From the NCBI GenBank assembly GCA_963539835.1, contig CAUTMM010000003.1, positions 78,728-142,727 on the forward strand: 64,000 nucleotides of DNA, written 5' to 3'. The stretch comes from an uncultured Acholeplasmataceae bacterium (GTDB taxonomy: Bacteria > Bacillota_I > Bacilli_A > Acholeplasmatales > Acholeplasmataceae). How positions within the stretch are numbered: position 1 is the stretch's first letter; every line of letters starts with the position of its first letter. The position numbers were made by a program, and so were the translations under genes. This document shows positions 17,204 to 64,000 of this stretch, in pieces. Under the pieces are notes generated by a model that did no database searches, had not been told where the DNA came from, and worked only from the letters and a program-made list of their open reading frames with translations.

Positions 17204-17226
17204 ATTAATACAAATTAAGTCTTTTT

Positions 17227-17258
17227 TAAAAAAGGTTGATTTATTCGACCTTTTTTTA
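17227..17258. terminator. Bidirectional hairpin between convergent genes (small ORF / dxs)
   Basis: AAAAAAGGTTG-ATTTATT-CGACCTTTTTTT, flanked by an A-run and a T-run. Confidence 0.45.
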
Positions 17259-18953: not shown

Positions 18954-19110
18954 CCTCTAAAATCGAGTCGGCTTTTTGAATTAAGTCTTTGGTTTGCTTA
19001 TAAAGTTCAATTGAAACCATGATGTCGTTTTCTTGATTTAACTTGTCAATGTTTTCCTTTATTTTTGCAAACAATGCTTTTAATTCTATGTTTTTTTCTG
19101 AATTGTTCAT
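18922..19110 (-). CDS. xseB: Exodeoxyribonuclease VII small subunit
   Basis: 62-aa helical protein immediately after xseA, with typical size and position. Confidence 0.85.
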   Translation of the reverse strand: MNNSEKNIELKALFAKIKENIDKLNQENDIMVSIELYKQTKDLIQKADSILEVAKKAIENEQ

Positions 19111-19113
19111 GTT

Positions 19114-30805: not shown

Positions 30806-31280
30806 TTAGTGTTTTACTAACACTAAGCCCAACACTGCATTTACAAAATAGACGCCTGGCTGTCCGTCTTTAGTTATATAGTATGCTTTTGGCAAAAAAA
30901 TTTGGCTTACTTTTTGTGCCATTCCATCATATCCCTTCATTGTTGTTTTCATAAAGCAACATCTAGTCAGTTCTTGATTTATCGTATGGATTGAAATTAA
31001 ATTTAGATTGCGGTAAAGCGGAAGTTCACCGCGTTGCTTGCCAAAAACTGCATTTGCACAATCAGTTGCTGTTTTAATTAGTTTATTTTGACTAGCAGAA
31101 TTTTCAGCAATTACTTTTTCAGGTAAATCTTTAAATTGCATAACTACTTTGAACTCATAATTTTAAACCTTTGGTTGCGCTGGTTTACAAGATGTTAAAT
31201 GAAATATCAAAATAGAAGTTAAAGCAACAAAAATAGTAATTGCAGTTGTTAAAACAGTATTTAAGCTGTTTATATTTTCA
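30806..31280 (-). pseudogene. Decayed fourth member of the surface-protein family (N-terminal anchor remnant plus C-terminal 111-codon fragment)
   Basis: The 111-codon ORF (30806-31141; TTG only, no SD) aligns with the last ~110 aa of the 616-aa paralog. NKLIKTATDCANAVFGKQRGELPLYRNLNL matches FKLIKNPTDFALAVLGKETGPNLVYRGVNF, and the end VLGLVLVKH matches VYGLVAAKR. At 31162-31280 a different frame reads ...NTVLTTAITIFVALTSILIFHLTSCKPAQPKV*. That is a TM or lipobox-like leader whose ATG (31280) is one frame off, next to an A4 run. Stops occur in all three frames at the junction. Confidence 0.55.
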
Positions 31281-31331: not shown

Positions 31332-33143
31332 CTATCTTTTTGCAGCAACTAAACCATAAACTTTAGCCACGTCTGTAAAGCCATAGTCTCCAGTTTCTTC
31401 AATGTATCTGACTAAATTAAGATTAGTACTTTCCTGGGTTGCAGTCCACCAATATTGATTTGAGTCTATAAAAAACTGCGGCATCCAGTTTTCATGGTTA
31501 TAGTTTAGCGGTCTAAATTGAGAGAAATTAACACCTCTGTAAACTAAATTTGGTCCAGTTTCTTTGCCAAGTACAGCCAATGCAAAATCGGTTGGGTTTT
31601 TGATTAGTTTAAAACGATTTGCCGGACTATCTGCAGTTTTTTCAACACCGAACTCACCATCGTCTAACGTAACTGCAAACAGTTCTGCTTTCATGATTTC
31701 AGAAATCTCTTGAAGTAAACTTTTGAAGATAGAGTTTACAAATGTCGCAACCTCAGGTTTGTTGTCTTGATGAATACTAAACGGAGTAAAGTCCAAAATC
31801 TTTTTTGTAAAATATGTTCTTTTATCTGGAATTGGGTCAAACTCAACTTCTTCGAATTTAAAGTATTCTCCATTTAATTTCTCATATGCTTCGCCAGAAT
31901 CGGTGTAAACCACAGTTCTAGTAAACTGTGCGGTTAACACTCTACCAACTGAATTGAAAGTTGCAGGAGTTTGGAAAACAATTTCTTTTTGAATGTCACT
32001 TTGATTAAGTTGAACTTTAGTTTGTGGATATAAGTTTGCCCCGTCTACTATTATGTGTTTGTAGTAAACTGTAATTTTTAGGTTTTTGTCAACCTTTGTT
32101 TTAAAAAGTTCTGCTTTAGTAATTGGAGTTCCGTTTAACTCAATTTTAGAAACTTGAAAGTTTTTGTCTTCTTGTAAATCTATGTTTTTTATTTCTTCGT
32201 TGTGTCTGCGAGTTTGTGGACTAATTTTTTTAGTTGCGGCTTTTATATCAAATTCTAAATTATAAACTTTTCTTTTAACATCTATTGTTACGATGTTTTG
32301 TGCAGGATCTTGAGCCACGACTAAACTTTGTCTGCTAACTTTTGGTGTTTGATAAACGTTTTCATCTGGATTTTTAAAATTAACTTGATGAGTAGAGCCA
32401 ATTTTTGTGTTTACTTCATGTGTGTTGGTAATTATTTGGCCGTTTTCGTCTTCTGTATTAACAATATATTTAACCTTAGTGATAGACGATACAAAAATAG
32501 GTTTGGCTTTTGTATTTTTATTTAATGGTACACTAAAATCTACTTTGTTACCGTCTTCATCAATATAGTGAGAAACCACTTGTTCCACACCTGCTACAAC
32601 TTTTTTAACATTAAAAAGAAGTTCTTTTACAGTTTTACTTAAAGTGTGTGAATACTTAAGTTCATATATTTTAGCAAGGTCTGTATGAATTGTGTCTGGT
32701 TTGATTTCAGGATCTGCGAAATCAAAAGTAACAGTATATTTTTTTAACTCAAAATAAAACACTAATTCCTGACTTGATTTTGTTGTGTCTACTGTCAATT
32801 GTGTTTTAGAAAGTGCTGGGCTGAAATCTGCATTGTGATTTGAAAAATCTTGTTCTGCTTTCAGTACAGTCCAGACTTTTTTAACTTTATCTTGCTTTAA
32901 ACTTACGGTTTTGCCATGTTCATATGCACCAATTTTTTGGTAAACTGTTTTTTCGGAGCCTTGATTGCTTAATTTTTCAAAAACTAATTTAACTCCAACG
33001 ATGGTTTTGTTTTTATCATTGCCTGTTGTTTGGCTACTAGATTTATGAGTTGCTAGCACTGTTGTTAAAGTAATAATAAAAATTAACAAAAAAACGGTTG
33101 CGGCAATTATAGAATAAATTGTGATTTTTTTTCTTTTTGACAT
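31332..33143 (-). CDS. N-terminally anchored surface protein, paralog A (603 aa from the SD-supported start), with a DUF6273-like C-terminal domain
   Basis: GGAG SD before the ATG at 33143 (MSKRKKITIYSIIAATVFLLIFIITLTTVLA). Beta-rich modules are shared with the 762-aa and giant proteins. The C-terminal domain has YPQTKV...NGEYFKFEEVEF...PTDFALAVLG...YWWTATQ...VYGLVAAKR. Confidence 0.8.
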   Translation of the reverse strand: MSKRKKITIYSIIAATVFLLIFIITLTTVLATHKSSSQTTGNDKNKTIVGVKLVFEKLSNQGSEKTVYQKIGAYEHGKTVSLKQDKVKKVWTVLKAEQDFSNHNADFSPALSKTQLTVDTTKSSQELVFYFELKKYTVTFDFADPEIKPDTIHTDLAKIYELKYSHTLSKTVKELLFNVKKVVAGVEQVVSHYIDEDGNKVDFSVPLNKNTKAKPIFVSSITKVKYIVNTEDENGQIITNTHEVNTKIGSTHQVNFKNPDENVYQTPKVSRQSLVVAQDPAQNIVTIDVKRKVYNLEFDIKAATKKISPQTRRHNEEIKNIDLQEDKNFQVSKIELNGTPITKAELFKTKVDKNLKITVYYKHIIVDGANLYPQTKVQLNQSDIQKEIVFQTPATFNSVGRVLTAQFTRTVVYTDSGEAYEKLNGEYFKFEEVEFDPIPDKRTYFTKKILDFTPFSIHQDNKPEVATFVNSIFKSLLQEISEIMKAELFAVTLDDGEFGVEKTADSPANRFKLIKNPTDFALAVLGKETGPNLVYRGVNFSQFRPLNYNHENWMPQFFIDSNQYWWTATQESTNLNLVRYIEETGDYGFTDVAKVYGLVAAKR

Positions 33144-33191
33144 ATTTCTCCTTAATTTAAAGCGCTTTATTACGATATGCACAAATATTTT

Positions 33192-33220
33192 ACTATAAAC
33201 CTATTTTAATGAGTAATTAA
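33192..33220 (-). promoter_or_regulatory. Weak candidate promoter for paralog A
   Basis: The minus strand reads TTAATT, a 17-nt spacer, then TATAGT. It lies downstream of the paralog B terminator. Confidence 0.3.
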
Positions 33221-33261
33221 TAATTAGATTAAAATTACCGATGCTAACAAATTAGCCTTGA

Positions 33262-33297
33262 TTTCAAAAGAAAACCCCTTTCTAATATAGAAAGGGG
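33262..33297 (-). terminator. Rho-independent terminator of the membrane/CPBP/paralog B operon
   Basis: Minus-strand RNA reads CCCCUUUCU-AUAUU-AGAAAGGGG followed by UUUUCUUUU, 8 nt after the stop of the 762-aa gene. Confidence 0.7.
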
Positions 33298-33304
33298 CAA
33301 ATAT

Positions 33305-35593
33305 TTATTTTTTACCTACAACAACACCAAAAACATTATAAACTGGGAAATAAGACCAATCCATTTTGTTGTTAATATCTTTTCTATAGACAATATATGA
33401 TTTAGGATCGATGTCTCCATGCTGAGTTGCAAGCCACCAAGAACCAAGATTATCAGGTGCATAATACGGCATCCATCTATCGCTGTCGTAGTCTGAAGGT
33501 TTAAAACCGCTAATGTCGTTTGCACGCAAAGAAGCGTATCTAAAGACTTTAGGTTGCTTAATTTCCGACATTAAAATTTCGGTGGCATAGTCGGTAGATT
33601 CTTTTCTAAGTTTTTCAGGTTCATTTCTAGCAATGTCGTTTACTCCAAACATTTTATCGGATTTGTCAAAAGTCAAAGGGTACAAGTTAGTTGTTCCAAA
33701 AATTTTTGAAATGTTTTGAAATAGACCATTCAAGATTGAGTTTTCGTATTTAGAGTTTTCCTTAACATCTTTTTTATATATATTAAAAGGCGTGTAGTCA
33801 ATAATTTTTTTAGAATAAAACCCAGTGGCACCAGGAATTTGGACAAACTCAACTTCTTCTAACTTAAAGTATTTGCCGTTGAATTTTTCGTATTTATCTG
33901 CACTATTTTTTCTGTAGACATATGTTCGAGTAAAATCAAATTTATGAGTTTTGCTGTCTGATTTAAACTCAAAACTTTGTTGTTTTGTTTCTTCTCTCAA
34001 AATATCTGCTTGCGTTAAGTCTACTTTAGTTTGTGGATATAAATATTTTGGAACAGAAACAACAATTTCAATTCTAACTGGTTTGTAGACTATGTAGTTT
34101 TCAACTTCCACTTTGGTTTTTTCTACATTGCCGATATAAAATTTAAGAATTTTGTCTTTGTATAAACTGTTTGTATCTATTGCGCCAACTTTTGCACCAT
34201 AATACACACCTCTTGCAGGTGGTGCAACTAAAGAGTTTATAACAGTAAAAGAAACTGTAAAGTAGCGACGTTTTAAAGTAATGGTTACTGTGTTTTCAGT
34301 GTTGTCTGCAGATACTTTAAAGGTAGTTCTTGTAAACTCAGGGTCAAAATAAATTACTTTGTTGTAGGCAAAAGAAACGGTGTGAGTTTCACCTATTTTT
34401 TGCTCTTGTGTTTGATAAGAGACTTTGTAGTGTCCATGCTCATTTTGACTTTTAATAATGTAGGTGATTTTACGAGTTTGAATTTCAACTTGAGCATACA
34501 AGTTAAGTTCGTTTACTCCTGCTATGTGTTTTGCTTGAACAGGTCCTGAAACAGAATCTGCCCAACCAATAAAGGTATAGTCGGTTTTTGGCTTAACTGA
34601 CGGATATTCAACTGCTCTGGTCAGTTTAACTAACTTGGTTTTAGGACCAGTAATATCAATGCTGTCATTTCCAATAAAATTTACTTTAGTAGTTTTTAAT
34701 CTATAGTACTGTTTTAAAACAACTGGAGTTCCGGTTTTATTTAGTTTTGCTGACAATAAGTTGCCACTGTGTGCTGTGTCTTTTTCGTATTTAGTTTTGT
34801 CCAAAGCAGTGTATTCTGTGTATTGAACTGTTTTTAAAGCAGTGTCTTTTTTTACTTCTTTAATTTCTTCATATGTGTTGTCAAGAGCACTACTTTCACC
34901 TTGTTTTTCAAGTAGGTGCATTACTGTATATTCTACTTCTAAGGCGGTTTTAGTAAATACTGGTTTGATTTTTAAGTCTGTGTTGTATGCTTTTTCAAAG
35001 TCTAAGGTTTCGCCGTTTTCAAGTAAAAAATGAGAAAGTGTGAACTTATGGGTTTCGTTGTCTTGCATTTTAACTGCAAGCAATGCTGTTTTAATTTCTG
35101 CGGGTATTTTGCTTGTGTACTTTAAGTTAAGTGGTTGTTTTAAGATATCTGAAACTGTAGATTGGTCAATTCCGCTTTCTGTAAAATCAAAAGTTATGCG
35201 GTAAGTTTTGGCTTTAAAGTAAAGTAAAAAATATTGCTTTTCGGCGCTAGAGTGAACTTTTAAAGTTTGCGTTGACTTTACAGAATCTGGTTTATTTTCG
35301 TGATTTTCAGAAACTAAGTCTTTTAATTTAGCGGTAATTTCAGGGTGCGTAATTTCAAGTTCAGTGCCTACTTTAAAATCACCAAGTTTGATTTCTTTTT
35401 CAAAGTCAGGTGCACTGTCTAGAGTTTCGTAAACTGTCTTTAGGTAAACTGTACTTTTGGTTTGAACTTCTGGATTGATTTTATCTTTTATTTTACTTTT
35501 AAAATGTAGTGTAAAAGCAACAGAAAGCGCAAAGATAAAGGCAAGTAATAACGCAAGCAAACCAATTAAAATATATTTCTTTTTAATTTTCAT
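33305..35593 (-). CDS. N-terminally anchored surface protein, paralog B (762 aa), with a Listeria-Bacteroides-repeat-like module and a DUF6273-like C-terminal domain
   Basis: Signal/anchor MKIKKKYILIGLLALLLAFIFALSVAF. YTFIGW repeat motif. Colinear with giant-protein residues ~1466-1640 and ~1889-2453. The C-terminal domain has YPQTKV...NGKYFKLEEVEF...STDYATEIL...SWWLATQ...VFGVVVGKK. Confidence 0.85.
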   Translation of the reverse strand: MKIKKKYILIGLLALLLAFIFALSVAFTLHFKSKIKDKINPEVQTKSTVYLKTVYETLDSAPDFEKEIKLGDFKVGTELEITHPEITAKLKDLVSENHENKPDSVKSTQTLKVHSSAEKQYFLLYFKAKTYRITFDFTESGIDQSTVSDILKQPLNLKYTSKIPAEIKTALLAVKMQDNETHKFTLSHFLLENGETLDFEKAYNTDLKIKPVFTKTALEVEYTVMHLLEKQGESSALDNTYEEIKEVKKDTALKTVQYTEYTALDKTKYEKDTAHSGNLLSAKLNKTGTPVVLKQYYRLKTTKVNFIGNDSIDITGPKTKLVKLTRAVEYPSVKPKTDYTFIGWADSVSGPVQAKHIAGVNELNLYAQVEIQTRKITYIIKSQNEHGHYKVSYQTQEQKIGETHTVSFAYNKVIYFDPEFTRTTFKVSADNTENTVTITLKRRYFTVSFTVINSLVAPPARGVYYGAKVGAIDTNSLYKDKILKFYIGNVEKTKVEVENYIVYKPVRIEIVVSVPKYLYPQTKVDLTQADILREETKQQSFEFKSDSKTHKFDFTRTYVYRKNSADKYEKFNGKYFKLEEVEFVQIPGATGFYSKKIIDYTPFNIYKKDVKENSKYENSILNGLFQNISKIFGTTNLYPLTFDKSDKMFGVNDIARNEPEKLRKESTDYATEILMSEIKQPKVFRYASLRANDISGFKPSDYDSDRWMPYYAPDNLGSWWLATQHGDIDPKSYIVYRKDINNKMDWSYFPVYNVFGVVVGKK

Positions 35594-35604
35594 ATATCTC
35601 CTAA

Positions 35605-36150
35605 TTAAATTAAGTTATAGTGGCTCAAAACATATAAAAAGTCGTTAAAACTTTTTGAGTTTCTAATTACATCAATGTTTTTGTTTAGTTTAAATGTTTC
35701 TGTACTGTTTTGAGTTTTTAAAGTTAAGGTATTTCCTTCAAAAAAAACTTCACTAAAGTCGCTAGGTGAAATTAAATAAACAATGTTAAAGTCAGTAGAG
35801 TTTACCAACTTAAACTTAAGGTCTTTGGTGACTGCAAAAATGTAAGTTCCTGCAGTAACAGTTGAGTTTTTCACAACAAATGGGCTCTGAATTTCTACGT
35901 CAAAAACTTCACGTTCATGTTCTAAATAAATTTGGGTTTTATTGTTGTTTTTTTGCTCAATTGTATTAAAAGTTAAAGTTAAAATAATAGAAATTACAAA
36001 CAAAGCACCTGAAAGCGAAAGTAAAATAATATAGACTAACTTAACGCGAAAGTCTGCAATTAAAAAGAAAAAACCAACTAAAAATAAAATAAAGGCAACA
36101 ACAGTTAATACAAAATTAACAATTCTTTTGATCTGCATTATCTTAAGCAA
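35605..36150 (-). CDS. Small membrane protein (2 N-terminal TM helices plus a ~110-aa beta-rich domain)
   Basis: 181 aa. Overlaps the upstream gene by 8 nt. The topology resembles bacterial PH-domain (YdbS/YdbT-like) membrane proteins, but that is only a resemblance. Confidence 0.6.
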   Translation of the reverse strand: MLKIMQIKRIVNFVLTVVAFILFLVGFFFLIADFRVKLVYIILLSLSGALFVISIILTLTFNTIEQKNNNKTQIYLEHEREVFDVEIQSPFVVKNSTVTAGTYIFAVTKDLKFKLVNSTDFNIVYLISPSDFSEVFFEGNTLTLKTQNSTETFKLNKNIDVIRNSKSFNDFLYVLSHYNLI

Positions 36151-37810
36151 GGAACAGTGTTATGACTGCTATTGTATTGTGTAAAATATGCAGCACTGAA
36201 GTTACAACCACGTTTCTTTTTGAGTAAACATAGACTAAAGAAAATGCCAGGCCACCTACTAAATATGCAAAGATATTGTAAGCAAACAAAGTAAACGAAG
36301 ACTCATTGACTACGTGGATTGCACCAAACACCAAGGTAGAAATTAAAACCCCTGGCCAGTTGGTTTTAAATAGAGAAAAAATTGCTTTTCTGAAAACTAG
36401 TTCCTCAATAATTGGACCAAATATACAAACTGTGAATATCAAGAACCATTTAAACTCGCCTCGCATCGCCGTTTCTATGGTTTGCTGGTTAAGCGATTCT
36501 CTAGAAAGTGCGTATCCGTAAACACCATCAATACTTGCGCGCATAGATTGCACGACAAATCCACCAACTATTGAAACTCCGAAAGAGATACCAAGGCCAA
36601 ATAGTAAAACTAGCCAATTTTTATTTAAAGCCAGTGTGTCTTTCTTAATAAATACAAAGTTTAACCCAAAAATTAAAGCAAAGCCAACTGCCATGCCGAT
36701 AAAGTTAAATAAAGCAAACGCATTGACTTGAGAAGTTATATTTTCGGCAAAGTATACATCGTGTTTAAGCAGGGCTGTAGTTTCTAATTCAGACTCTGTT
36801 TTTTGTACAAAAAATGGTAGTTTTTGAATGTTTTGATCAACATACACGCGCTCATAGACATCTCTTCTGTCAGAACCCGCAAGCGGCACATTTGCCAGCA
36901 CCCTTGAGTAAAGTACAGGATATAGGTCCTTTTTAATTTTTGAAGTCAAACCAATTAGTCTGCTGGTTTTACTAATGTAAATATCTGGAAACTCAGCACT
37001 TGGTGCTTCTACTTTTTGATATCCTTCAATTTGACTGTTTTTTTGATACTTGCGCACAACTACTGTGTATTTATCTAATTTAACATCTTTGATGTTAGAA
37101 AAAGTGCTAATAATTTTTCGGTCTTGAGAATCTGCGTAAATTAGTTGTGGCAAGGTTATGCCAAAGCCTGCAGTTTCAGCAATATCAAAGAAAACTAAGC
37201 GGTTTAAGATTTTGTTTTCTTTTTTGGCTTGTTCAAAATTATTTAAAGCAGCATGTTGCTCAGGAGTTAGTGATTTAGTATTGTCTGACTTGATTTTAAG
37301 AATTTGGCTAATCTTTGCTTTTTCGGCCAGAGTTTGAATGTATAAGTTTTGAAGATCAACTAGGTTTGCGTAAACTACACTACTTTCTTTGCTTTGAAAA
37401 GTTGAGTATTCGCCAAAAGTTTTGGCAATCAAGTTGTGCTTCTTTTCAAGTTCTTTAACCTTATTAACATCGCTAATTTTATAAATTCCAATATTGGTTT
37501 TGTGTTGTTTAATTTGTCTAAAAAAACTCTCTTCTTTAGTGGTTACCTTAGAAAGGATGTTGTTTTTGCCTTTATTGGCTTTTTGAAACAACGACATCAT
37601 TGCACCAGTTAAAATAAACATCAAAAAGTAAAGTAAGAAAGTTAAAACAGCCCAAAGCACAGTTTTTTTAGTGACTTCGAAGCGTTGAGGTGCTTTGGTT
37701 TTTTTAACTGGTTCAAACTGTTTTTCGTAGTCTGGTCCAAATTGCTTTATAGGTTCTGCATCTGTTTTAGTCTCTTTTAATTCGTCTGGTTTTTTTTCAA
37801 TGATTTCCAT
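36143..37810 (-). CDS. CPBP-family (Abi/CAAX-type) intramembrane glutamic endopeptidase with a large N-terminal extracytoplasmic domain
   Basis: 555 aa. One N-terminal TM, then a ~300-aa domain of unrecognised family, then a polytopic C-terminal region. That region carries the three CPBP motifs IIEELVFR (EExxxR), FGAIH (FxxxH) and HILHN (HxxxN). Confidence 0.8.
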   Translation of the reverse strand: MEIIEKKPDELKETKTDAEPIKQFGPDYEKQFEPVKKTKAPQRFEVTKKTVLWAVLTFLLYFLMFILTGAMMSLFQKANKGKNNILSKVTTKEESFFRQIKQHKTNIGIYKISDVNKVKELEKKHNLIAKTFGEYSTFQSKESSVVYANLVDLQNLYIQTLAEKAKISQILKIKSDNTKSLTPEQHAALNNFEQAKKENKILNRLVFFDIAETAGFGITLPQLIYADSQDRKIISTFSNIKDVKLDKYTVVVRKYQKNSQIEGYQKVEAPSAEFPDIYISKTSRLIGLTSKIKKDLYPVLYSRVLANVPLAGSDRRDVYERVYVDQNIQKLPFFVQKTESELETTALLKHDVYFAENITSQVNAFALFNFIGMAVGFALIFGLNFVFIKKDTLALNKNWLVLLFGLGISFGVSIVGGFVVQSMRASIDGVYGYALSRESLNQQTIETAMRGEFKWFLIFTVCIFGPIIEELVFRKAIFSLFKTNWPGVLISTLVFGAIHVVNESSFTLFAYNIFAYLVGGLAFSLVYVYSKRNVVVTSVLHILHNTIAVITLFLA

Positions 37811-38397
37811 TATTGGCGCTCCTTGACTTTTGAGTTGTCAGATTCTTTTAGCTCTATTTCTTTGTTTTCTAGTTCTTCAGTTTCCACTCCTTTAATTTCG
37901 CTTTCGTTTAGATGGCTTTCCAAGTCATTCAAATCAACGCAGGTAGTTTGAATAACTTCGGGTTCAACTGAATCAGCTTCGTTCTCATGGGGTTTTGCTT
38001 GTTTATATGTATTCATTAGTTGTTTTTCTCTGACCTTCCACGTTGTAGTTAAACAAAAAGGAACAGCGATAGCGATAGAAGAAACGCCAACTACAATAAA
38101 TGCAATTGCCAAAATTAACGAAAAAGTCTTAGTTGGATCAAATAAATTGATGTAAAAAGGAATTAACATCAAAAATCCCGCAACAGAATACAAAATATCA
38201 TCCATATTTTTTTCAAACTTATAAAAATAAAGCCCAATAGTTGTAGCAATTAAGTTAACTCCAAATATAGACTTTGCGACTATGTAGCAAATTAAAAGGT
38301 TATAATTAGTTGGACTTTTAATAAAACTAAAGCCGATTGTAACTGCCAAAATTATTGATGTGATTAAAATATAATAACTTCTTTTTTCTTTAAACAT
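37810..38397 (-). CDS. Polytopic membrane protein (about 4 TM) with an acidic C-terminal tail
   Basis: 195 aa. Its stop overlaps the next ATG (TAATG at 37808-37812). No family recognised. Confidence 0.62.
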   Translation of the reverse strand: MFKEKRSYYILITSIILAVTIGFSFIKSPTNYNLLICYIVAKSIFGVNLIATTIGLYFYKFEKNMDDILYSVAGFLMLIPFYINLFDPTKTFSLILAIAFIVVGVSSIAIAVPFCLTTTWKVREKQLMNTYKQAKPHENEADSVEPEVIQTTCVDLNDLESHLNESEIKGVETEELENKEIELKESDNSKVKERQ

Positions 38398-38405
38398 ATC
38401 AACTA

Positions 38406-38411
38406 ATTATA
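38406..38411 (-). promoter_or_regulatory. -10 hexamer TATAAT, 8 nt upstream of the operon ATG (leaderless-type)
   Basis: The minus strand reads TTTAGTATAATTAGTTGATATG. There is no SD. Confidence 0.35.
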
Positions 38412-38429
38412 CTAAATAAACTTAGGCTT

Positions 38430-38438
38430 TGTTATAAT
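38430..38438 (+). promoter_or_regulatory. Extended -10 element TGTTATAAT for the ktrA-like operon
   Basis: Located about 50 nt upstream of the GTG at 38488 (SD TTGAGGT). Confidence 0.45.
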
Positions 38439-38487
38439 ATAGCCGTCTTTTTAATTTATTTTAAAGAAACAAATTGAGGTATTTATC

Positions 38488-39147
38488 GTGAAAAAAACTA
38501 TCTTAGTAGTAGGCCTTGATAATTTCGGGCAAACAATTTGCAAAGACTTATCTGAAAACGGACATATCGTAATTGCACTTGACCAAACTAGTGAAAAAAC
38601 TTTGAGAGTTGAGCCTTTTGTCGAACACGCTGCAACTGGTGTTTTGACAACCGCAGACATCTACAAAGACCTTGGACTTGGCCACGCTGACTGGGCTGTG
38701 GTTTCATTTCCAACACACTTTGACACTGCGATGATTATTGTAACTATCTTAAAAGATTTAGGAATGACAAATATTATTTGCCAGGTTACTAACGAATATC
38801 AAGAGCGAATTGCCAAAATGCTTGGAGCTTCGGTTACTATTTATCCAGATAACATCGCAAGTAAACAAACTGTTCGCAAAATCATTTGGCAGAATGTACT
38901 GGAACACTATGCACTAGACCAAAACTACGGAGTTTACGAAGTAATTGTTAATACCAACCGTTATGACGGAAAAACTCTAAGAGAACTGCAATTTCCAGAG
39001 ACTTATTCGGTAAACATTGTGCTAATTCGCAGAGCAGGTGTGACGAAAATGCCTTCTAAAAATGAAGTTTTAGAGAAAAATGACGTCGTAATTGTATTGT
39101 GCGAGCAAAACAAAATCAGTAAATTTCAAGAAATCTTAAATGACTAA
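38488..39147 (+). CDS. RCK-domain K+ transport regulatory subunit (KtrA/KtrC/TrkA-like)
   Basis: 219 aa. Rossmann motif VVGLDNFGQTICKDL...VIALD (RCK_N). The RCK_C part is colinear with Bacillus KtrA. No KtrB/TrkH membrane partner is adjacent. Confidence 0.85.
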   Translation: MKKTILVVGLDNFGQTICKDLSENGHIVIALDQTSEKTLRVEPFVEHAATGVLTTADIYKDLGLGHADWAVVSFPTHFDTAMIIVTILKDLGMTNIICQVTNEYQERIAKMLGASVTIYPDNIASKQTVRKIIWQNVLEHYALDQNYGVYEVIVNTNRYDGKTLRELQFPETYSVNIVLIRRAGVTKMPSKNEVLEKNDVVIVLCEQNKISKFQEILND

Positions 39148-56208: not shown

Positions 56209-59200
56209 TTAAGAATAAATGTATGGACGACAAGGCACAACCCCACCAATAAAGTTCATTGGGTAGTGAGTGTTACTAAAATATGTTGAGTTAGTGCGAT
56301 AAACACCTGTTATACCTTCAATATAGCCATTATAATTTTTATAAACTTCTGCGGTAAGATATGCATATGGTCGTTTACTTTGATCGTTGTATTGATTATC
56401 TTCAAAATACCAACTAGACAAATAATTAGTTAAACTAGCCGGAATTAGTTTAGCAAAATCAATACCACGATAAATTTGTGTAGTAGCCGCAGTCCAAGGT
56501 CCAAGAATTTCTTTTGCATAATCTGTAGGTTCTTTGACTAATTTGTTTATCTTACTTGGATTTACAGAATGGTAAAGAGCGTTATCTCCATGACTCCAGG
56601 TAGGTGGTGTAAGTTCTGCGATTCCCATAACCGCAGCAATATCTTTAAGCATCGCTTTGAAAATTGAGTTTTTAAATTCATATCCGGCGTAACCTCGGTT
56701 TGCAGATATAGTGTATGGCGAAAAGTCAATAATTTTTTCTGTCATTAAACTTTCTTTTGTAGCTAGTTTCTTCCAAACAACATCTTCAAATTTAAAGTAT
56801 TTGCCGTTATATTTCTCAAAACGATTGCCTTGCGTATCTTTTACAAATACACGGTTGAACTTAGCAACAAGGTCAAAGCCATCTGCGTTGAAGCGAAGTG
56901 TTCTTTCACTAACTTCTTCGGCTTCAAGACTACCTGGATTTTCTACTAAAGTTTGTGGGTACTGATATTTAACTTCTTCATACCAACCAAATTTCAAGGA
57001 GACTTCCGTGTTTTTTGTAACTAAATAGGTTTCAATGTAGGCTAAATTGTGTTTTGCGATTTTTTGACCGTCAATTCGGAAATCCAGGCGGTCAAAGCCA
57101 TAATATTCAACTTGACTTATTTCAATTTTGCCAATTGCAGCACCATGTTTAAGTCTGCGTTCATATAATTGGTATAGATCTTGCGGTGCACCTTCAACAT
57201 TGAAAGTTACTTTATAGACGTGTAGTTTTAAATAGATAGTAACAACATTGTGTTGGTCATCTTTGTGAACTGTGATAGTTGGATTTGAAAAAGTCATTTC
57301 GTATTTTTCAGGTTCAGGGTTTTCATATTTAGCGGCGTAAAAAGAACCAATTTTTGCTTTGTCTTTTTTAAATTTAGTTATCTCGTATTCACCGTCTAAC
57401 TTTTCCTTGCGAATTTCATAAGTAATATCTCTTTCTTTGGCTATGTAGACTGGATATAAGTAAATACTTTCCTTAGTAATAGGGGCAACAAATTTAGTTA
57501 AAGGTCCATCAATGTTAGCAGGATAATTAGACCAACCCGCAAAAGTCTCGGAATCAGTATCCGGAAGTTTGCGAGATAGGTTCACCAAGCGAGTCATTTT
57601 AACTTGCACGCCTTCTGGATATTGGTCGTTAATAGTTTTTTTGTAGTATACAGTGACAGACTTAAGTGAATAGTACTGATAAACTTTAACGGTGTTATCA
57701 CCTGGTGTTAAGTCAGCGGTTAGTTGATTTGCTTTAGTAGTATCTAAAAAGTAAAGGTCGTTGTTTAATTTAGGATATGCTTCGTATTTTGCACCCAATT
57801 CAACTAGTTGGTCTTTTTTAGTTTCAATAATTTCGTCGTACTTGTCGTTTAGATCAGCAGACTCACCTTGTTTTTCAAGGTAGTGTACGATTTGATAATT
57901 GACTTTGTGAATTTCAACTTCAAAGAAAGGCAAGAGGTCAACAGGTCCGGCAATTCTGTAGGTACTAAAATCTAAAGCAGTGGTTTCTAAATAAGCGCCA
58001 TTCATTTCTTTGCTGTCTTGCCAGTGTTTAAATTTATAAGTGCGACCATGGAAAACAATTGAAGGGTTAATTAACGGTTTAGGGATTTTTGCACCATACT
58101 TAAGCATTAGTTTAGTTGGCATATCGTTTATTTTTAGACCTTGGTTTGAAAAATAATAATAATTTATAAAATGTCTATCCCAAGTTACTTGAAAAACTTT
58201 GCGTATGTATCTTAACTTAAATACGGTAGAACCGTCTGGTGCAATATTTTGAGTCTGGCTATCTGACATTGTAAACCCGTGGTAGTACTTCCACATACCG
58301 TCTTTGCCGTCAACAGTTACCGAGGTGTTAGAAATTGCTCTTCTGGTAACTGTGCGAACTTCTTCAGCGATATCTCCTTCAATTCCTTCAAAAATGTGCT
58401 CAATTGTGTAAGTAGTGTAGTCTGGCGCAAATACTGCGTAGACTTTAGTAGTGTTTCTTGTGATGATAAAATCACCTGGTTTTCCTTTTGGAACAGATGC
58501 CCAACCGACAATCTTCCAGCCTTTTTTGACGTTAGTATTCGTATTAAATCTAAAGTAATTGCCAGCAGTTGCTTGAATAGACGGCCAGGTTGGATTCTCT
58601 ACTTTATCTAGGTCGTCGTCGTCAACGGTTGGAGTGATTTTAACGGTAACTTTTCTCTTTTTATATTTAGCCTCTAAGAATACGTTTTTGTTGTAAGCAA
58701 CTGTTGGGTCAAACTTGGTGCCTGAAACTAAAAAGCGATCAAACTCATAGTCAAAATATTGGTTTGTTGTAATTGGTTTGATTTGAGCAAGTTCATCTAA
58801 GAATCTCTTTGAAACGGTTTGTGAATATTTAACTGTCTCACCATTTTTAACATAGTCAGAAATAGAAGAAGAATCAGTTTCATTATAGGTATAAAACCTA
58901 ACTGTGTAGGTATTGGCCTTGTAGTAAGCAGTTAAAAACTTCTTGTCTTTTTCTTTCGTTACTATCAATTCAAATACAGTATTTTGACTCTTTGTGTAGT
59001 CGTTAATGTGGTTTGGATGCGGGTTGTTTCGCAGGTATTCACTGATAATTGAATCAAACCTTTTTAAATCAATCTTACCACCAATTGTAACGTCAATTGG
59101 ATACGGCAATTCTTTGACTTCATCTGGTGAGTTGTCTAGAGTTTCCCAAACTAAACGGACATAAACAGGGCGAGTGGCTTGATTTTCTTGCCACTTCGCT

Positions 59201-62200
59201 TTCAAAGTAAGGTCGCTGGTTACCACAGTTGGAGAATTGTCAGGGTCAAACGAAATACTTGAGTTGTCCAAAGAATTTACCCATCGTCTAAATTTATAAA
59301 TTATTTCTGCATTAGGGTCAATTTTAGTAGGGTGTTTAACATCTTTAATAATTTGTTGGTATTTATACTGAACTGAGGTGTGTGAGTTGCCGTTAACTTC
59401 ACCTCCATTATAGTCGTAAGTTACAGTAAAGATTTTTCTTGTGTAATTTAAAACAAAACTAGTTTGTCCGTTTGCCAGTATTTTTTTCTCTTCAGAAAAA
59501 GGAGCAAGTTCAAAACCTTCTTCTAGTCTAACCAGACGGTCAGCCTCAGTTACTTTAACAGTTGAGTTTACTACACCTATTTTGGTTTCTAGTTCTATTC
59601 TTTCAGGGATATTGTCAACACCAGGCAAGACGTGCTTGATAGTGTAGTTTACAGTAGTTTGTTTTTCTTCAAAGAAAGCAACTAAAGTAATATCTTTATT
59701 GACAGTAGTTGAACTAAAGTCAAAAGCAGAAATTTCTTTATATTCACCGTTCATGTCAGTTTTTAGCTGCCAATGTTTAAAGGTGTAAGTATAGCCTTCT
59801 TTAATCATGGTTGGTGCAAACTCAGGTCTGCGGACTTTACCTTGATACTTAATTGCTTGACTAGGTTCAAGAGACTCAGCAACATCACTAAAATAATTGC
59901 CGTTGTAGTTAACTTCAAAGTTAACTTTATACTGTTTACGGAAATATCTTAAGATAAAGTAAGTTGTGGTGTTAGCCTCAATAATTTTAGTTTGAGTTTG
60001 GTCAGCAATGTTAAAGCCTTCGTCGTAGCCAACTAAACGGTTGTCTCGGTTAACTGTGACTTTAGTTCCAACGTTTACTGTGACTTTAGGGTCTTCAATA
60101 GTCTTTGTCTTAACGTTGTCAACACCTTCAATGATGTGTTGAATGATGTAGCCTGCTGTGGTTACAGTTTCTTCAAAGAAGGCAACCAAGGTAATGTTTT
60201 TAGTGATTTTAGTGTTGAAGTTAAACTCACTTACAAAACGGTATGTATCGTTCATATCGTCTTTAAGTTGCCAGTGGATGAATTTGTAGTTAAAGCCTTG
60301 TTTTTGAATAGTTGGGTATTGAGCAGGTCTAATAGCTTTTCCTTCATACTCCACAGTTTGCGGACTTTGACTAGAAGCCTTGACGTCTTTAAAGTGATTG
60401 CCTTTAAAGTTAACTTCAAAAGAGACGGTAAACGTACGGCGACGATACACTAAGGTAAAGACAGTAGAACCGTCTGCTTTGATTGCCTGAGTTTGGTTTT
60501 GTTGATCAACTATAAAGCCTTCGTCATAACCAGGTAGACGATTTTCTCGGTTAATTGTAACTAAACTACCAATTTGCGCAGTTTTACTGTTATCAACAAT
60601 CTCTTGATTGCTGGTCTGACCAGTAATTCCGTTGATAATGTGTTTAATTGTATATTTAGCGTTAGCTGCACTTGACTCAAAATAAGCAACCAACGTTAAG
60701 TTTCTATTAACTTGAACATTGCCAAAATCAAAAGCAGAAACTTTAGCATAATTGCCATTCATTTCGTCTTTAAGTTGCCAGTGAATGAACTTAAAGGTGT
60801 AGCCAGGTTTAGTTAAAATAGGGTGGTTATTTGGTCTCTTAACTCTACCTTCAAAACCAATGATTTGATCTGGCTCCACAGACGAAGTGGCACCTGAGAA
60901 ATATGTGTTATTGTAGTTAACTTCAAAGTTAATACGGTAAGTTTTTCGTGTGTAGACTAAAGTAAATGAAGTAGAACCATCGGCTTCTATTTTCTTAGTT
61001 TGATTTTGTTGTTCCACATCAAAACCGTGGTCATAGTTGTCTTTACGGTTATTGCGGTTAACTGTGACTTGTGAGTTAATTTCTGCGTACTTAGTCTCAA
61101 TAATTTCTTTATCCGGAGAACCGTCAACTCCTTTGATAATGTGCTTAATTGTATATTTAGCACTAGATATGTCTTCTGCAAAAAAAGCAACCAAGTTTAG
61201 ACTTTGTGTAACTTGGTGGTCAGCAAAGTTAAACTCAGGCTGTTCTGTGTACTGCCCGTTCATAGCCAGTTCGTTTTGCCAATGTTTAAAGGTAAAAGTA
61301 CGACCAGGTTTTTCAATTGTTGGGTTAACAGCAGGTTTCTTAACCTTACCTTGATACTTAATTTTTTGGGTTTCTGGGTTTGGAGAAACACTTGCGTCTT
61401 TGACACGGTTGTTGTAGTTTACAGTAAAATTAACTTCAAAAGTTTTGCGTTCATATCTAAGTTCAAACACAGTAGAGCCATCTGCCTGAATAACTTTGCT
61501 TTGACTAGGTGTTTTGACAACAAAACCGGTATCAAACTCAGTTAAACGGTTGCTTTTAGAAATTGTGACGGTGTCGTTAGTTTGCGCCTTGCCATAAGTT
61601 TCTTTGACAACTTCGTCAATTTCATTTTCAATTCCTTCAAGGATATGTCTAACTGTATAAGTAGTTTCAGTTGGAGCAAACACAGCGTAAACTTCAGTTG
61701 TAGTTCTGCTTATTGTAATTTGTTGAACTGGTCCGCCTGGTAAAGTTGTCCAACCTAAGAACTTCCAACCTTTTTTAATGTTTGTGCCTAGTGGCAGATA
61801 GTTAAAATGTTGACCTGCAAATACTTTTTGAACAGGCCAAGTTTGACTGTTGACTTTGTCAACATCCGAGTCTGCTGCTTTTGGAGTTACTGAAACTAAA
61901 ACAGGTTTAGTTTTAAAGACAGGTTTCACAACTATATTTTTATTATATGGAGTGTTAACGTCTAGTTCCAAGCCAGTTGACTCATCTATTAGTTTTTCAA
62001 ACTCGTAGTCATTGTAGTCATCTGCTGGTTTTTGAACTTTTTTCATGGCTTCAATTAACTCAGCAGAAATTTTATTTGAATGTTTAAAGGTGTTAGTGCG
62101 TTTCAAAATATCTGCAACTGATTGATCTGCCAATCCTGTGCGGTTAAATTCAACATTGTAAGTTTTGGCTTTAAAGTAAAAAGTCAAGTATTGTTTTTCT

Positions 62201-64000
62201 AACTTATCTTCAACGTCTATTGCAGTTGTAGAGTTAGCTGAAAACACTTCGTCGTGATGGAAAGGATGTGGATGATTTGCTTTGAATTGAGACAAGGTTC
62301 TCTGAACATCTGAGTCGTCGCTTTTCAGTAGTTTGCCAACTGGTTTTTCTTTTTGAACTAAAGCCTCTTTAATTTCGTCTTGTATGCCGTCTAAGTTCTC
62401 CCAAATCATCTTTAGGTAAACTGGACGAGTGTTGACTTTCTCTTCCCATTTGGCTTTTAAAAGTAATGGTTTGGTAACTTTTACAGGGTAGTCAAAATCA
62501 AGTAAACTACCAGTTTCTTGATTTATCCAACCAACAAAACGATAAACTTTTTGTCCAGTTTGGTCTTTTTTAACAGGGTGGCTGATGTCTTTTAAAGTTT
62601 GCTCATATTGATACTCAACAGTCTTTTTGTTTTCACCATTTAATTCACCTGAATTGTAGTCGTAAACTACATTGAATTTACGACGCACATAGGTTAAGGT
62701 AAAAGTAGTTTGACCATTTGCCTGAATTTTTTTAGTTTCAGTTTGCTGAGGTAAATCAAAGCCGGCAGTTAAGTATTGTTGTAGACCGTTTGCTTCAGAA
62801 ACAGAGACCGTGCTGTCTACTTTGCCAGTTTTAACTTCTGTAACGGTTCTTTCTGCGATTTTTTCAACGCCAGGCAGAACATGGTTGATCGTGTAGTTAG
62901 CAGTAGCCACTTCTTCTTTAAAGTAAGCAACTAAAGTTGTGGCTTTTGTGATTTTGGTGTTAGCGAAATCAAATGGAGTCACTTCTTTATACTCGTTGTT
63001 CATCGCTGCCTTGTCTTGCCAGTGTACAAAGGTGTATGTGTAGCCTGGTTTCTTTAAAGCAGGCGCAAAATCTGGTTTTGCTACTTTTCCTTGAAATGCA
63101 ATGTCTTGTGTAGGTTGCGTGGTTTGAGTAACTCCCGAAAAATGAGAGTTGTTGAAGTTTACTTCAAAGTTTACTTTATAAATTTTTCTAATGTATTTTA
63201 AGACAAAAGTAGTAGAACCATCTGCTTCAATAGTTTTAGTTTGACTTTGCTTCTCTACATCAAATCCTTCATCATAACCGCTTAAACGACTTGAATTGTC
63301 AACAGTTACTTCACTACCTACAAGTGCTGATTTAGTTGAGTCTTTAATAATTTCGTCGTCTTGTCCATCAACTCCTTGAATTTCGTGTCTAATTGTATAG
63401 TTAGCAGTAGTTTTTTCTTCTTCAAAATAAGCAACTAAAGTTATATTGCTAGTGATTTTGGTGTTAGCAAAATCAAAAGCAGAAATTTTTTGGTAGCTGC
63501 CATACATGTAGTCCTTAAGTTGCCAGTGTACAAAGCGGTAGTTAAAACCAGGTTTAGTTAAAGTAGGCAATTGACTAGGAACTGTTGCCTTGCCTTCAAA
63601 TTGTACGGTTTCACTTGCTTGAACAGAAGGAGTGGCGTCTTGAAAGTGGCTGCCTTTGTAGTTAACTTCGTAAGTTACTGTGAATCTACGACGTTTATAT
63701 CTAAGGGTAAAAGTAGTTGAACCATCTGCTAAAATTGGCTTAGTTTGATTTTGTTGTTCAACTTCAAAACCAGCATCATATTGAGTTAAACGGTTTTCGC
63801 GGTTAACAGTAACAAGAGAACCGATTTGCCCTGATTTTGAGGAATCCGTGGTTGTTGAGTCAGCTTGACCAGATAGTCCTTCAAAAACGTGGTTAATGGT
63901 GTATTTAGCAGTTGTAACTTTCTGTTCAAAATAAGCAACTAATGTTAGGTTTTTAGTGATTTTGGTGTTAGTAAAATCAAATGCCTGGATTTTTTCGTAG
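56209..64000 (-). CDS. Giant repeat-containing surface protein (more than 2,596 aa; N-terminus lies beyond the right window edge), with a DUF6273-like C-terminal domain
   Basis: The ORF-track start at 63570 is a TTG inside a repeat. I translated 63571-63999 in the same frame and it stays open, reading ...ADGSTTFTLRYKRRRFTVTYEVNYKGSHFQDATPSVQASETVQFEGKATVPSQ-LPTLTKPGFNYRF. So the gene continues off-window. There is no LPXTG motif or C-terminal TM. Confidence 0.9.
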   Translation of the reverse strand, partial: YEKIQAFDFTNTKITKNLTLVAYFEQKVTTAKYTINHVFEGLSGQADSTTTDSSKSGQIGSLVTVNRENRLTQYDAGFEVEQQNQTKPILADGSTTFTLRYKRRRFTVTYEVNYKGSHFQDATPSVQASETVQFEGKATVPSQLPTLTKPGFNYRFVHWQLKDYMYGSYQKISAFDFANTKITSNITLVAYFEEEKTTANYTIRHEIQGVDGQDDEIIKDSTKSALVGSEVTVDNSSRLSGYDEGFDVEKQSQTKTIEADGSTTFVLKYIRKIYKVNFEVNFNNSHFSGVTQTTQPTQDIAFQGKVAKPDFAPALKKPGYTYTFVHWQDKAAMNNEYKEVTPFDFANTKITKATTLVAYFKEEVATANYTINHVLPGVEKIAERTVTEVKTGKVDSTVSVSEANGLQQYLTAGFDLPQQTETKKIQANGQTTFTLTYVRRKFNVVYDYNSGELNGENKKTVEYQYEQTLKDISHPVKKDQTGQKVYRFVGWINQETGSLLDFDYPVKVTKPLLLKAKWEEKVNTRPVYLKMIWENLDGIQDEIKEALVQKEKPVGKLLKSDDSDVQRTLSQFKANHPHPFHHDEVFSANSTTAIDVEDKLEKQYLTFYFKAKTYNVEFNRTGLADQSVADILKRTNTFKHSNKISAELIEAMKKVQKPADDYNDYEFEKLIDESTGLELDVNTPYNKNIVVKPVFKTKPVLVSVTPKAADSDVDKVNSQTWPVQKVFAGQHFNYLPLGTNIKKGWKFLGWTTLPGGPVQQITISRTTTEVYAVFAPTETTYTVRHILEGIENEIDEVVKETYGKAQTNDTVTISKSNRLTEFDTGFVVKTPSQSKVIQADGSTVFELRYERKTFEVNFTVNYNNRVKDASVSPNPETQKIKYQGKVKKPAVNPTIEKPGRTFTFKHWQNELAMNGQYTEQPEFNFADHQVTQSLNLVAFFAEDISSAKYTIKHIIKGVDGSPDKEIIETKYAEINSQVTVNRNNRKDNYDHGFDVEQQNQTKKIEADGSTSFTLVYTRKTYRINFEVNYNNTYFSGATSSVEPDQIIGFEGRVKRPNNHPILTKPGYTFKFIHWQLKDEMNGNYAKVSAFDFGNVQVNRNLTLVAYFESSAANAKYTIKHIINGITGQTSNQEIVDNSKTAQIGSLVTINRENRLPGYDEGFIVDQQNQTQAIKADGSTVFTLVYRRRTFTVSFEVNFKGNHFKDVKASSQSPQTVEYEGKAIRPAQYPTIQKQGFNYKFIHWQLKDDMNDTYRFVSEFNFNTKITKNITLVAFFEETVTTAGYIIQHIIEGVDNVKTKTIEDPKVTVNVGTKVTVNRDNRLVGYDEGFNIADQTQTKIIEANTTTYFILRYFRKQYKVNFEVNYNGNYFSDVAESLEPSQAIKYQGKVRRPEFAPTMIKEGYTYTFKHWQLKTDMNGEYKEISAFDFSSTTVNKDITLVAFFEEKQTTVNYTIKHVLPGVDNIPERIELETKIGVVNSTVKVTEADRLVRLEEGFELAPFSEEKKILANGQTSFVLNYTRKIFTVTYDYNGGEVNGNSHTSVQYKYQQIIKDVKHPTKIDPNAEIIYKFRRWVNSLDNSSISFDPDNSPTVVTSDLTLKAKWQENQATRPVYVRLVWETLDNSPDEVKELPYPIDVTIGGKIDLKRFDSIISEYLRNNPHPNHINDYTKSQNTVFELIVTKEKDKKFLTAYYKANTYTVRFYTYNETDSSSISDYVKNGETVKYSQTVSKRFLDELAQIKPITTNQYFDYEFDRFLVSGTKFDPTVAYNKNVFLEAKYKKRKVTVKITPTVDDDDLDKVENPTWPSIQATAGNYFRFNTNTNVKKGWKIVGWASVPKGKPGDFIITRNTTKVYAVFAPDYTTYTIEHIFEGIEGDIAEEVRTVTRRAISNTSVTVDGKDGMWKYYHGFTMSDSQTQNIAPDGSTVFKLRYIRKVFQVTWDRHFINYYYFSNQGLKINDMPTKLMLKYGAKIPKPLINPSIVFHGRTYKFKHWQDSKEMNGAYLETTALDFSTYRIAGPVDLLPFFEVEIHKVNYQIVHYLEKQGESADLNDKYDEIIETKKDQLVELGAKYEAYPKLNNDLYFLDTTKANQLTADLTPGDNTVKVYQYYSLKSVTVYYKKTINDQYPEGVQVKMTRLVNLSRKLPDTDSETFAGWSNYPANIDGPLTKFVAPITKESIYLYPVYIAKERDITYEIRKEKLDGEYEITKFKKDKAKIGSFYAAKYENPEPEKYEMTFSNPTITVHKDDQHNVVTIYLKLHVYKVTFNVEGAPQDLYQLYERRLKHGAAIGKIEISQVEYYGFDRLDFRIDGQKIAKHNLAYIETYLVTKNTEVSLKFGWYEEVKYQYPQTLVENPGSLEAEEVSERTLRFNADGFDLVAKFNRVFVKDTQGNRFEKYNGKYFKFEDVVWKKLATKESLMTEKIIDFSPYTISANRGYAGYEFKNSIFKAMLKDIAAVMGIAELTPPTWSHGDNALYHSVNPSKINKLVKEPTDYAKEILGPWTAATTQIYRGIDFAKLIPASLTNYLSSWYFEDNQYNDQSKRPYAYLTAEVYKNYNGYIEGITGVYRTNSTYFSNTHYPMNFIGGVVPCRPYIYS
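57403..64000 (-). repeat. Divergent in-frame tandem repeats, unit about 504 nt (167-169 aa), nested inside a ~3.25-kb internal duplication
   Basis: The [A/V]xYTIxH motif recurs at residues 56, 224, 637, 804, 971, 1139, 1307, 1720 and 1889 of the tracked ORF. It alternates with KPGYT[YF]xF[VI]HWQ motifs. DNA-level echoes are visible, e.g. gattttggtgttag[ct][ag]aaatcaaa at 62950, 63451 and 63958. Confidence 0.85.

Follow-up and report, generated by a model that had tools for sequence, protein, structure and literature searches.

A putative genus-specific operon around an ancestral CPBP-type intramembrane protease gene, with an adhesin-like gene at its end, in an uncultured Acholeplasmataceae bacterium

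The stretch of DNA considered here, a window of 64,000 nt from contig CAUTMM010000003.1 (positions 78,728 to 142,727), was assigned by a scan of one genome per species to the metagenome-assembled genome of an uncultured member of the Acholeplasmataceae, a family of wall-less bacteria. Four adjoining minus-strand genes within it encode a 195-amino-acid (aa) membrane protein, a 555-aa CPBP (Rce1-like) intramembrane protease, a 177-aa membrane protein and a 762-aa adhesin-like surface protein. The reading that we favour, with about even confidence, is that these genes would form a genus-specific operon built around an ancestral and catalytically competent protease, and that the adhesin would be co-expressed with the protease rather than specifically processed by it. 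The CPBP gene is old, as its orthologue occupies the same slot by trkA and rdgB across the Acholeplasmataceae, Mariniplasma and Izemoplasmatales; the full-length 555-aa type is found in 15 species-level genomes, at 72–94% identity, that make up one genus-like clade (hereafter, the clade). An earlier reading made from the letters of the DNA alone (the sequence-only reading) had instead proposed that a fixed linkage of protease and adhesin marks a module dedicated to the maturation, shedding or anchoring of surface proteins, or else to self-protection. What is new here is the combination of a first transmembrane (TM) helix, an ectodomain and a CPBP core in one protein, together with two orphan membrane proteins and a narrowly distributed surface family; CPBP proteases as such, like repeat-stalk adhesins and retroelement targets, were known before.

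Results

A CPBP protease with intact motifs and an orphan ectodomain

The 555-aa gene (36143..37810, minus strand) was taken for a CPBP protease in the sequence-only reading, and profile search agrees: PF02517 is matched over residues 454–547 with 58.3 bits against a cut-off of 22.4 (E 9.6e-16). The three catalytic motifs named in that reading are all intact, namely EELVFR (E469-R474, the EExxxR motif; 36389..36406), FGAIH (F495-H499, FxxxH; 36314..36328) and HILHN (H541-N545, Hxxx(N/D); 36176..36190), each on the minus strand, and residues E469, E470, R474, F495, H499, H541 and N545 are invariant in an alignment of near and distant homologues. It is these same three motifs that separate active CPBPs such as MroQ from the non-catalytic SpdC, LnsB and SpbR (PMC12260438). 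That they are intact and invariant from the clade to its distant orthologues argues for retained catalysis, and the protease is probably active.

By hydropathy the protein consists of a charged N-terminal tail, the first TM helix (TM1), a loop of ~290–295 aa that would form an ectodomain, and a C-terminal polytopic core with hydrophobic segments at 370–552, which AlphaFold2 (AF2) models as helices with a predicted local distance difference test score (pLDDT) of 70–85. The ectodomain (residues ~76–365; 36716..37585, minus strand) could not be placed in any family in the sequence-only reading, and this has not changed, as it matches no Pfam or NCBIfam model and its only relatives among 1.84e9 representative proteins are two matches, both from its own clade. 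The ratio of nonsynonymous to synonymous substitution rates (dN/dS) for this region is 0.08–0.22, from which we take it to be a real and constrained domain; at short range its constraint matches that of the core (0.081 vs 0.072). An AF2 model of the 555-aa protein from an eight-sequence alignment had a pLDDT below 50 over the whole ectodomain, a Foldseek search of that model against the PDB returned nothing below E=0.47, and a profile search of PDB sequences with the CPBP protein gave no match.

Among curated subfamilies the closest by score is MroQ of Staphylococcus aureus, which has the same polytopic C-terminal core with EExxxR, FxxxH and HxxxN motifs, but the MroQ equivalog model NF046050 is matched with only 43.7 bits against a cut-off of 270. 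The MrtJ model NF033192 reaches 29 bits against a cut-off of 75, and no other Mrt model is matched at E<=0.1, so that the protein falls into none of the curated subfamilies. Relative to MroQ and other characterised CPBPs, the 555-aa protein has an additional N-terminal TM helix and the ~290-aa orphan ectodomain and, unlike the case of MroQ, no agr-type peptide gene lies near its gene. A role like that of LnsB in lipoprotein N-acylation was considered as the ancestral function of these CPBPs and set aside, there being no NCBIfam signal for it and the motifs being intact here where those of LnsB are degenerate (PMC12260438).

The protease gene is older than the rest of the unit

The next relatives of the clade are Mariniplasma, other Acholeplasmataceae and the Izemoplasmatales. 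Their CPBP proteins are 36–45% identical to the 555-aa protein, in the core only, and their genes sit in the same slot, divergent from trkA and/or from an rdgB(Ham1)-APH-1000-aa gene order; because this syntenic position by trkA and rdgB is shared, we regard them as orthologues. They are shorter (363–409 aa) and have a loop of ~150 aa, or, in the Izemoplasmatales, no loop at all (235–243 aa). Outside the clade the CPBP orthologue either stands alone or is followed by a cytoplasmic GH17-like gene or by a convergent ankyrin-repeat gene, and neither tblastn nor profile hidden Markov models (HMMs) found any homologue of the 195-, 177- or 762-aa proteins, or of the 616-aa paralogue of the latter encoded downstream of it, within 10 kb of these out-of-clade orthologues.

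The linkage that the sequence-only reading took to be fixed is thus fixed within the genus-like clade and is missing beyond it, where the orthologues have no neighbour from the surface family. Inside the clade, the order 195-CPBP-177-762 is kept in all 15 genomes wherever the contig allows it to be seen; the deepest member (L094) encodes proteins of 167, 565, 177 and 772 aa, with a gap of 45 nt at the first junction. However, the flanking genes are equally conserved, with valS, folC, a C1 peptidase gene, the gene for a 1000-aa protein, Ham1/APH and trkA on one side and gmk, msrAB, ligA, uvrA, lgt, trxB and whiA on the other, so the linkage of the four genes in the clade is inseparable from its general synteny.

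Four genes in one probable transcript

The four minus-strand open reading frames (ORFs) named in the sequence-only reading, at 37810-38397 (195 aa), 36143-37810 (555 aa), 35605-36150 (181 aa) and 33305-35593 (762 aa), can be accepted as real genes because all are under purifying selection, with dN/dS of 0.08–0.27 in comparisons with two relatives (synonymous divergence, dS, about 0.5–0.8 against the closer and 1.0–1.4 against the deeper one). The first junction is the predicted TAATG at 37808-37812, an overlap of 1 nt preceded by AAGGAG, and the third is the predicted gap of 11 nt, with AGGAG before 35593. The second junction is where the description needs to be amended. The 181-aa ORF begins at a TTG (36150), which would give an overlap of 8 nt with the protease gene, but the gene calls in every relative begin at the ATG at 36138 and give a protein of 177 aa, and on that ground a gap of 4 nt is the likelier arrangement; the exact 181-aa sequence is missing from the protein collection, in which the other three proteins are present.

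Upstream of the unit, the best sigma-70-like promoter match of the region (ATAACA-18-TATAAT; 38406..38435, minus strand) agrees with 10 of 12 consensus positions and is found 8 nt ahead of the start of the 195-aa gene, within the 90 nt that separate this gene from the divergent trkA-like gene; the match is one of consensus only and does not exceed what shuffling would give over the region as a whole. The far end is closed, as the sequence-only reading had it, by an intrinsic terminator behind the 762-aa gene (33264..33298, minus strand), consisting of a G+C-rich hairpin, GCCCCTTTCT-loop-AGAAAGGGG, and a T-run. The hairpin is kept, with variants in its stem, in seven of nine related genomes (L002, L013, L015, L019, L024, L025 and L026), where it is followed by a -10-like box, also conserved, that belongs to the next gene. 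Within the four-gene unit there is no internal terminator, and the 762-type gene is without a promoter of its own in all members of the clade, the deepest included. We infer that the four genes are carried on one transcript, which would begin in the promoter region at ~38400-38465 and end with the terminator at 33298-33264.

How much should be made of this packing is another matter. The window has 28 further same-strand junctions. Of these, 15 are of 11 nt or less and 10 are overlaps, and the tight ones include those of ligA-uvrA-lgt-trxB-whiA (named from Pfam tables), a series of genes with unrelated functions. The tight junctions described in the sequence-only reading are therefore real but not distinctive; close packing would favour co-transcription and carries little information on shared function in this genome.

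Two small membrane proteins specific to the clade

The 195-aa protein (37810..38397, minus strand) has four predicted TM helices and an acidic C-terminal tail of 83 aa, belongs to no family, and has homologues in clade loci only, where its gene evolves with a dN/dS of 0.10–0.17. The 177-aa protein (35605..36138, minus strand; 181 aa if counted from the TTG at 36150) has two TM helices and a soluble domain of ~120 aa, and its gene a dN/dS of 0.19–0.27. It is likewise specific to the clade and without a family: tblastn and profile HMMs, applied to ±10 kb around the CPBP orthologues, yielded no homologue outside the clade, and a comparison with PDB sequences gave noise only. Weak Pfam and NCBIfam matches of the two proteins to TssN, 8xMP, STM3941, MAG1210 and SecDF were rejected, as they fall on TM segments, far below the cut-offs, and are best seen as hydrophobic noise.

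The 762-aa protein and its narrow family

The last gene of the unit (33305..35593, minus strand) encodes a predicted type-II (N-in) membrane-anchored surface protein, in which an N-terminal TM helix (residues 8–30) is followed by a beta-rich repeat stalk and by the C-terminal domain that defines the family (residues ~501–762; 33308-34093, minus strand). The protein has no Cys, lipobox, LPXTG or C-terminal TM helix. An AF2 model with a mean pLDDT of 71 shows a chain of beta-rich domains, with values below 50 at residues 680–760, and its Foldseek matches are YwfG, Ruminococcus gnavus IbpA and repeat proteins of the InlB B-repeat, MUB and MucBP types.

More than 80 family members were retrieved, ranging from 170 to 1770 aa and sharing the N-terminal anchor, a variable number of repeats and a C-terminal domain of ~250 aa that starts with YPQTKV. 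Most of the larger ones contain PF09479 (Flg_new), with no match in the 762- and 616-aa proteins. As sampled the family is narrow, all 81 profile matches belonging to it. A profile of its C-terminal domain finds nothing among PDB sequences, and metagenome contigs scanned with the domain gave only two short loci. The sequence-only reading had described an N-terminally anchored, adhesin-like family that does without LPXTG, and LPXTG is indeed present in none of 83 members. Its idea of an organism that lacks sortase-type anchoring likewise fits the wall-less Acholeplasmataceae. No conserved motif surrounds the N-terminal TM anchor across the paralogues. The label 'DUF6273-type' that had been attached to the 762-aa protein does not hold at the level of sequence, since neither the whole protein nor its C-terminal 262 aa has a Pfam match even at E<=10. 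When PF19789 was compared with ten diverse C-terminal domains of the family, it touched a single one (E=3.3, noise), and no precomputed PF19789 annotation exists among about 100 homologues.

In 63 of 83 retrieved members (P0024-P0106) the chain ends in GVVVC[IV][RK]-COOH, with the Cys one or two residues from the end, and in 34 of the 63 this is the only Cys. All 16 of the CPBP-linked 762-type sequences (14 full-length and two fragments) have Gly at this position and no Cys (window 33305-33340). We considered whether the single Cys at the C-terminus in most paralogues might be modified, as a CaaX-like or lipidation site, and rejected this, since Gly, Ala or Pro takes its place in other members and since the coding sequence of the GVVVC tail is identical in the two repeats of the retroelement described below. 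The simpler reading would be that the position calls for a small buried residue or reflects a constraint on the retroelement sequence.

Paralogues in the window and elsewhere

Three further family members lie in the window. The first is a tandem paralogue directly downstream (31332..33143, minus strand; 603 aa from the ATG, or 616 aa from a GTG at 33182), which is 32% identical to the 762-aa protein. An alignment of the intergenic region marks it as a transcription unit of its own, beyond the terminator and equipped with a conserved TATAGT/TAAAAT box and a 5' hairpin. This short hairpin (GCGCTTT...AAAGCGC-like; window 33183-33262, homologous in L013-L026) follows the box and precedes the AGGAG of the 616-aa gene, and may be a 5'-UTR element. 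Downstream again is the 111-aa remnant of a third member (30806..31141, minus strand), which retains only the C-terminal domain and is 32% identical to residues 517–615 of the 616-aa paralogue. In L094 the 616-aa paralogue is itself not intact, only frameshifted remnants being left (L094:12320-12830). The array appears from these remnants to be one that turns over by duplication and loss.

The remaining member is a giant ORF of 2453 aa (56209..63570, minus strand), 18 kb from the CPBP gene and unlinked to any CPBP, in which Flg_new (PF09479) is matched in six stretches with 62 bits. Its first codon is a TTG within a repeat, and no N-terminal TM anchor is present (window 56209-64000); the true start may be cut off from the ORF by a stop or frameshift further upstream, or may lie outside the window.

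At seven other sites with family members, in six further loci that were sampled, there was no CPBP gene nearby. These sites are lspA-HAD (two tandem members), pflB (two tandem members), the region upstream of hrcA-grpE-dnaK, dhfr, and a retroelement island. At the first of them, a fused gene for signal peptidase II (Peptidase_A8) and a HAD hydrolase, of 501–506 aa (L092:6478-7983 and L093:8448-9968), lies directly upstream of the two tandem paralogues; the family itself has no lipobox.

A diversity-generating retroelement acts on one paralogue

The retroelement island (L100; ena:ERZ28633996, VALL22-1 scaffold_46, 10001-19218) contains a complete diversity-generating retroelement (DGR) that targets P0045, a paralogue of 1771 aa. 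Behind P0045 come a 376-aa gene, a helical basic protein of 175 aa that is Avd-like (16728-17255) and an RVT_1 reverse transcriptase (RT) of 416 aa (17968-19218). The variable repeat (VR; 15166-15340) and the template repeat (TR; 17290-17464) are copies of a 175-nt sequence that differ by 17 mismatches, of which all 17 are at TR adenines and all 17 in codon positions 1–2. Because every mismatch sits at an RT-proximal adenine, the repeat pair has the signature of a DGR. The VR covers the "WWLG...GVVVCIR" tip of the family C-terminal domain, the last ~37 codons of P0045, and the tail, with its identical VR and TR coding sequence, may be part of the DGR homing signal rather than a modification site.

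From this diversified tip we take the family head to be a ligand-binding domain of the kind that DGRs diversify. DUF6273 has been described as a C-type-lectin-like retroelement target (PMC10743442), and by analogy the C-terminal domain of the family may belong to the same functional and fold class despite having failed Pfam membership. The likeness to known DGR targets (the DUF6273 'tentaclins', Treponema TvpA and Mtd of Bordetella phage) lies in P0045, whose C-terminal ~37 codons are diversified by a TR/RT cassette; the differences are that the surface family has no significant PF19789 match and that the window contains neither an RT nor a TR. Nothing in the 762-aa protein itself points to its being diversified in this way.

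Discussion

The comparison shows what became of an ancient stand-alone protease gene in the clade. The loop between TM1 and the core grew to the ~290-aa orphan ectodomain, a new four-TM gene was inserted upstream of the CPBP gene and a new two-TM gene downstream of it, and the first gene of a decaying surface-protein array came to lie behind the protease without a promoter of its own. In the scheme that we favour, the protease would most likely cleave in or next to the membrane-spanning segments of membrane proteins in general, with the 195- and 177-aa proteins as its most plausible lineage-specific partners or regulators, while the adhesin would most likely be co-expressed cargo of a compact genome and not the substrate of a dedicated sorting system. 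Several considerations weigh against this scheme. The ectodomain, both small genes and the adhesin gene are all new in one and the same clade, and they are tightly integrated physically (the 1-nt overlap and the gaps of 4 and 11 nt), which is how a functional module would look as well. The neighbourhoods on which the comparison rests reach ±10 kb around each CPBP orthologue, and synteny as deep as that of the clade cannot separate selection for linkage from too little time for rearrangement, although a dS of ~1 or above between the deepest clade members qualifies the point about time. Finally, sorting of surface proteins by a CPBP enzyme is known from myxosortase (PMC11980579).

The last of these points leads to the proposal of the sequence-only reading that the unit is dedicated to surface-protein maturation, shedding or anchoring. 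Here the ectodomain would recognise the surface family, the protease would cleave at the signal-anchor or a juxtamembrane site and so mature or shed the adhesins, and the arrangement would be many-to-one, with a sortase-like enzyme encoded beside one of its many substrates and with the 195- and 177-aa proteins as accessory subunits. A co-transcribed unit, as the junctions, promoter and terminator suggest, would suit this, as would the promoterless state of the first adhesin gene throughout the clade, the intact catalytic motifs, and the joint appearance in one lineage of the ectodomain, the two small genes and, as sampled, the surface family. There is also precedent: the role of CPBPs as sorting enzymes for surface proteins is already established (PMC11980579; bioRxiv 10.1101/2023.06.07.544157), with MrtX as the myxosortase in question, and Abi-domain proteins affect staphylococcal surface-protein display (Frankel et al., cited in PMC12260438). 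Like the present protease, the myxosortase MrtX and the MrtJ of the JDVT-CTERM system occur in genomes with a multi-paralogue surface family. However, myxosortase substrates carry a tripartite C-terminal signal that consists of an invariant Cys motif, a TM helix and an Arg-rich tail (PMC11980579), whereas a C-terminal TM helix occurs in none of 83 members of the family here, its CPBP-linked members have no Cys, and no Cys/TM/basic sorting signal is seen at the C-terminus; nor is there a motif around the N-terminal anchor that the paralogues share. The comparison of gene neighbourhoods, which the sequence-only reading had itself named first among the results that could refute it, also went against the proposal, since out-of-clade CPBP orthologues have no family member within 10 kb and the linkage is therefore absent beyond one genus-like clade. 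Family members at the seven other sites do without a nearby CPBP gene, and tight spacing is non-specific in this genome. We accordingly regard a dedicated module as unlikely, if still worth keeping in mind. Somewhat more doubtful again is its fullest form, in which the CPBP protein with its ectodomain and two accessory subunits would be a sortase-independent maturation or shedding enzyme for the many paralogous, N-terminally anchored receptors, at least one of them diversified by a retroelement; if true, CPBP sorting would here take a new form, one that does without a C-terminal sorting signal.

A partnership without proteolysis, in which the CPBP protein would bind the TM anchor of the surface protein or of some other single-pass protein and position or regulate it, seems to us improbable. 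CPBP-like proteins of Firmicutes repeatedly pair with N-terminally anchored single-pass proteins, as in the SagB-SpdC complex (PDB 6u0o; bioRxiv 10.1101/2020.05.21.109470) and in SpbR-SpsB (PMC12260438), and the 762-aa protein is predicted to be just such a single-pass, N-in anchored protein. The S. aureus pairs SpdC-SagB, SpbR-SpsB and LnsB-LnsA thus resemble the present case in joining a CPBP-fold protein to an N-terminally anchored extracellular one, but they are not operon-linked, and in SpdC, SpbR and LnsB, as in the known non-catalytic members generally, the motifs are degenerate (PMC12260438), whereas all three are intact and invariant here.

Abi/CPBP proteins have historically been associated with bacteriocin immunity, and it is on this historical tie that a self-protection role would rest, be it a guard against a co-encoded toxin or bacteriocin or a part of anti-phage defence. 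The sequence-only reading had allowed for it, but it now appears very improbable indeed: inside the unit there is neither intergenic space nor a small ORF for a bacteriocin, PADLOC gives no match to any of the four proteins, and the CPBP gene belongs to the conserved core and lies among housekeeping genes.

With respect to the adhesin itself, the repeat-stalk adhesins of Firmicutes (Flg_new/InlB B-repeat, MucBP/MUB, YwfG and IbpA) are alike in their tandem beta-grasp-like repeats and differ in being anchored by LPXTG and sortase, where the proteins described here have an N-terminal TM helix and a family-specific head for which there is no Pfam model. They define a new and narrow family of N-terminally anchored, repeat-stalk surface proteins, the C-terminal head of which can be a retroelement-diversified ligand-binding domain. 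If the protease were to process this family, it would be a candidate maturation or shedding enzyme in wall-less bacteria, for which few adhesin-processing proteases are known, and the "sortase-like" biology of CPBPs would no longer be confined to C-terminal signals with a Cys, as in myxobacteria. On present evidence, the locus shows how the gene of an ancient, stand-alone membrane protease came, in a single lineage, to encode an orphan ectodomain and to have new neighbours.

Other conserved neighbours of the CPBP gene

The trkA-like gene (38488..39147, plus strand), which is divergent from the unit, served together with the Ham1/APH gene as the synteny anchor by which CPBP orthologues were recognised in distant Mollicutes-like genomes. 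Divergent from the CPBP gene, the order trkA, rdgB(Ham1), APH kinase and ~1000-aa gene is kept from the clade to the Izemoplasmatales (window 38488-43578; loci L027-L033, L036, L056, L067 and L085). In the clade, Ham1 and APH are fused into one protein of 479 aa, and the Metallophos_2 gene that intervenes in relatives is missing.

In Mariniplasma-like genomes the CPBP orthologue has a different conserved neighbour, a protein of ~301–310 aa encoded 11–12 nt behind it (L007:7828-8760, L029:10436-11341, L030:10636-11541 and L031:10439-11347). It has no TM helix or signal peptide, and its C-terminus matches Glyco_hydro_17 with 29.6 bits against a cut-off of 28.2.

The 1000-aa protein (window 40576-43578), for which no Pfam hit is on record, aligns end to end with a 999-aa GGDEF+EAL protein of the Mariniplasma-like relatives (22% identity, E 6e-36) and may be a degenerate cyclic-di-GMP protein.

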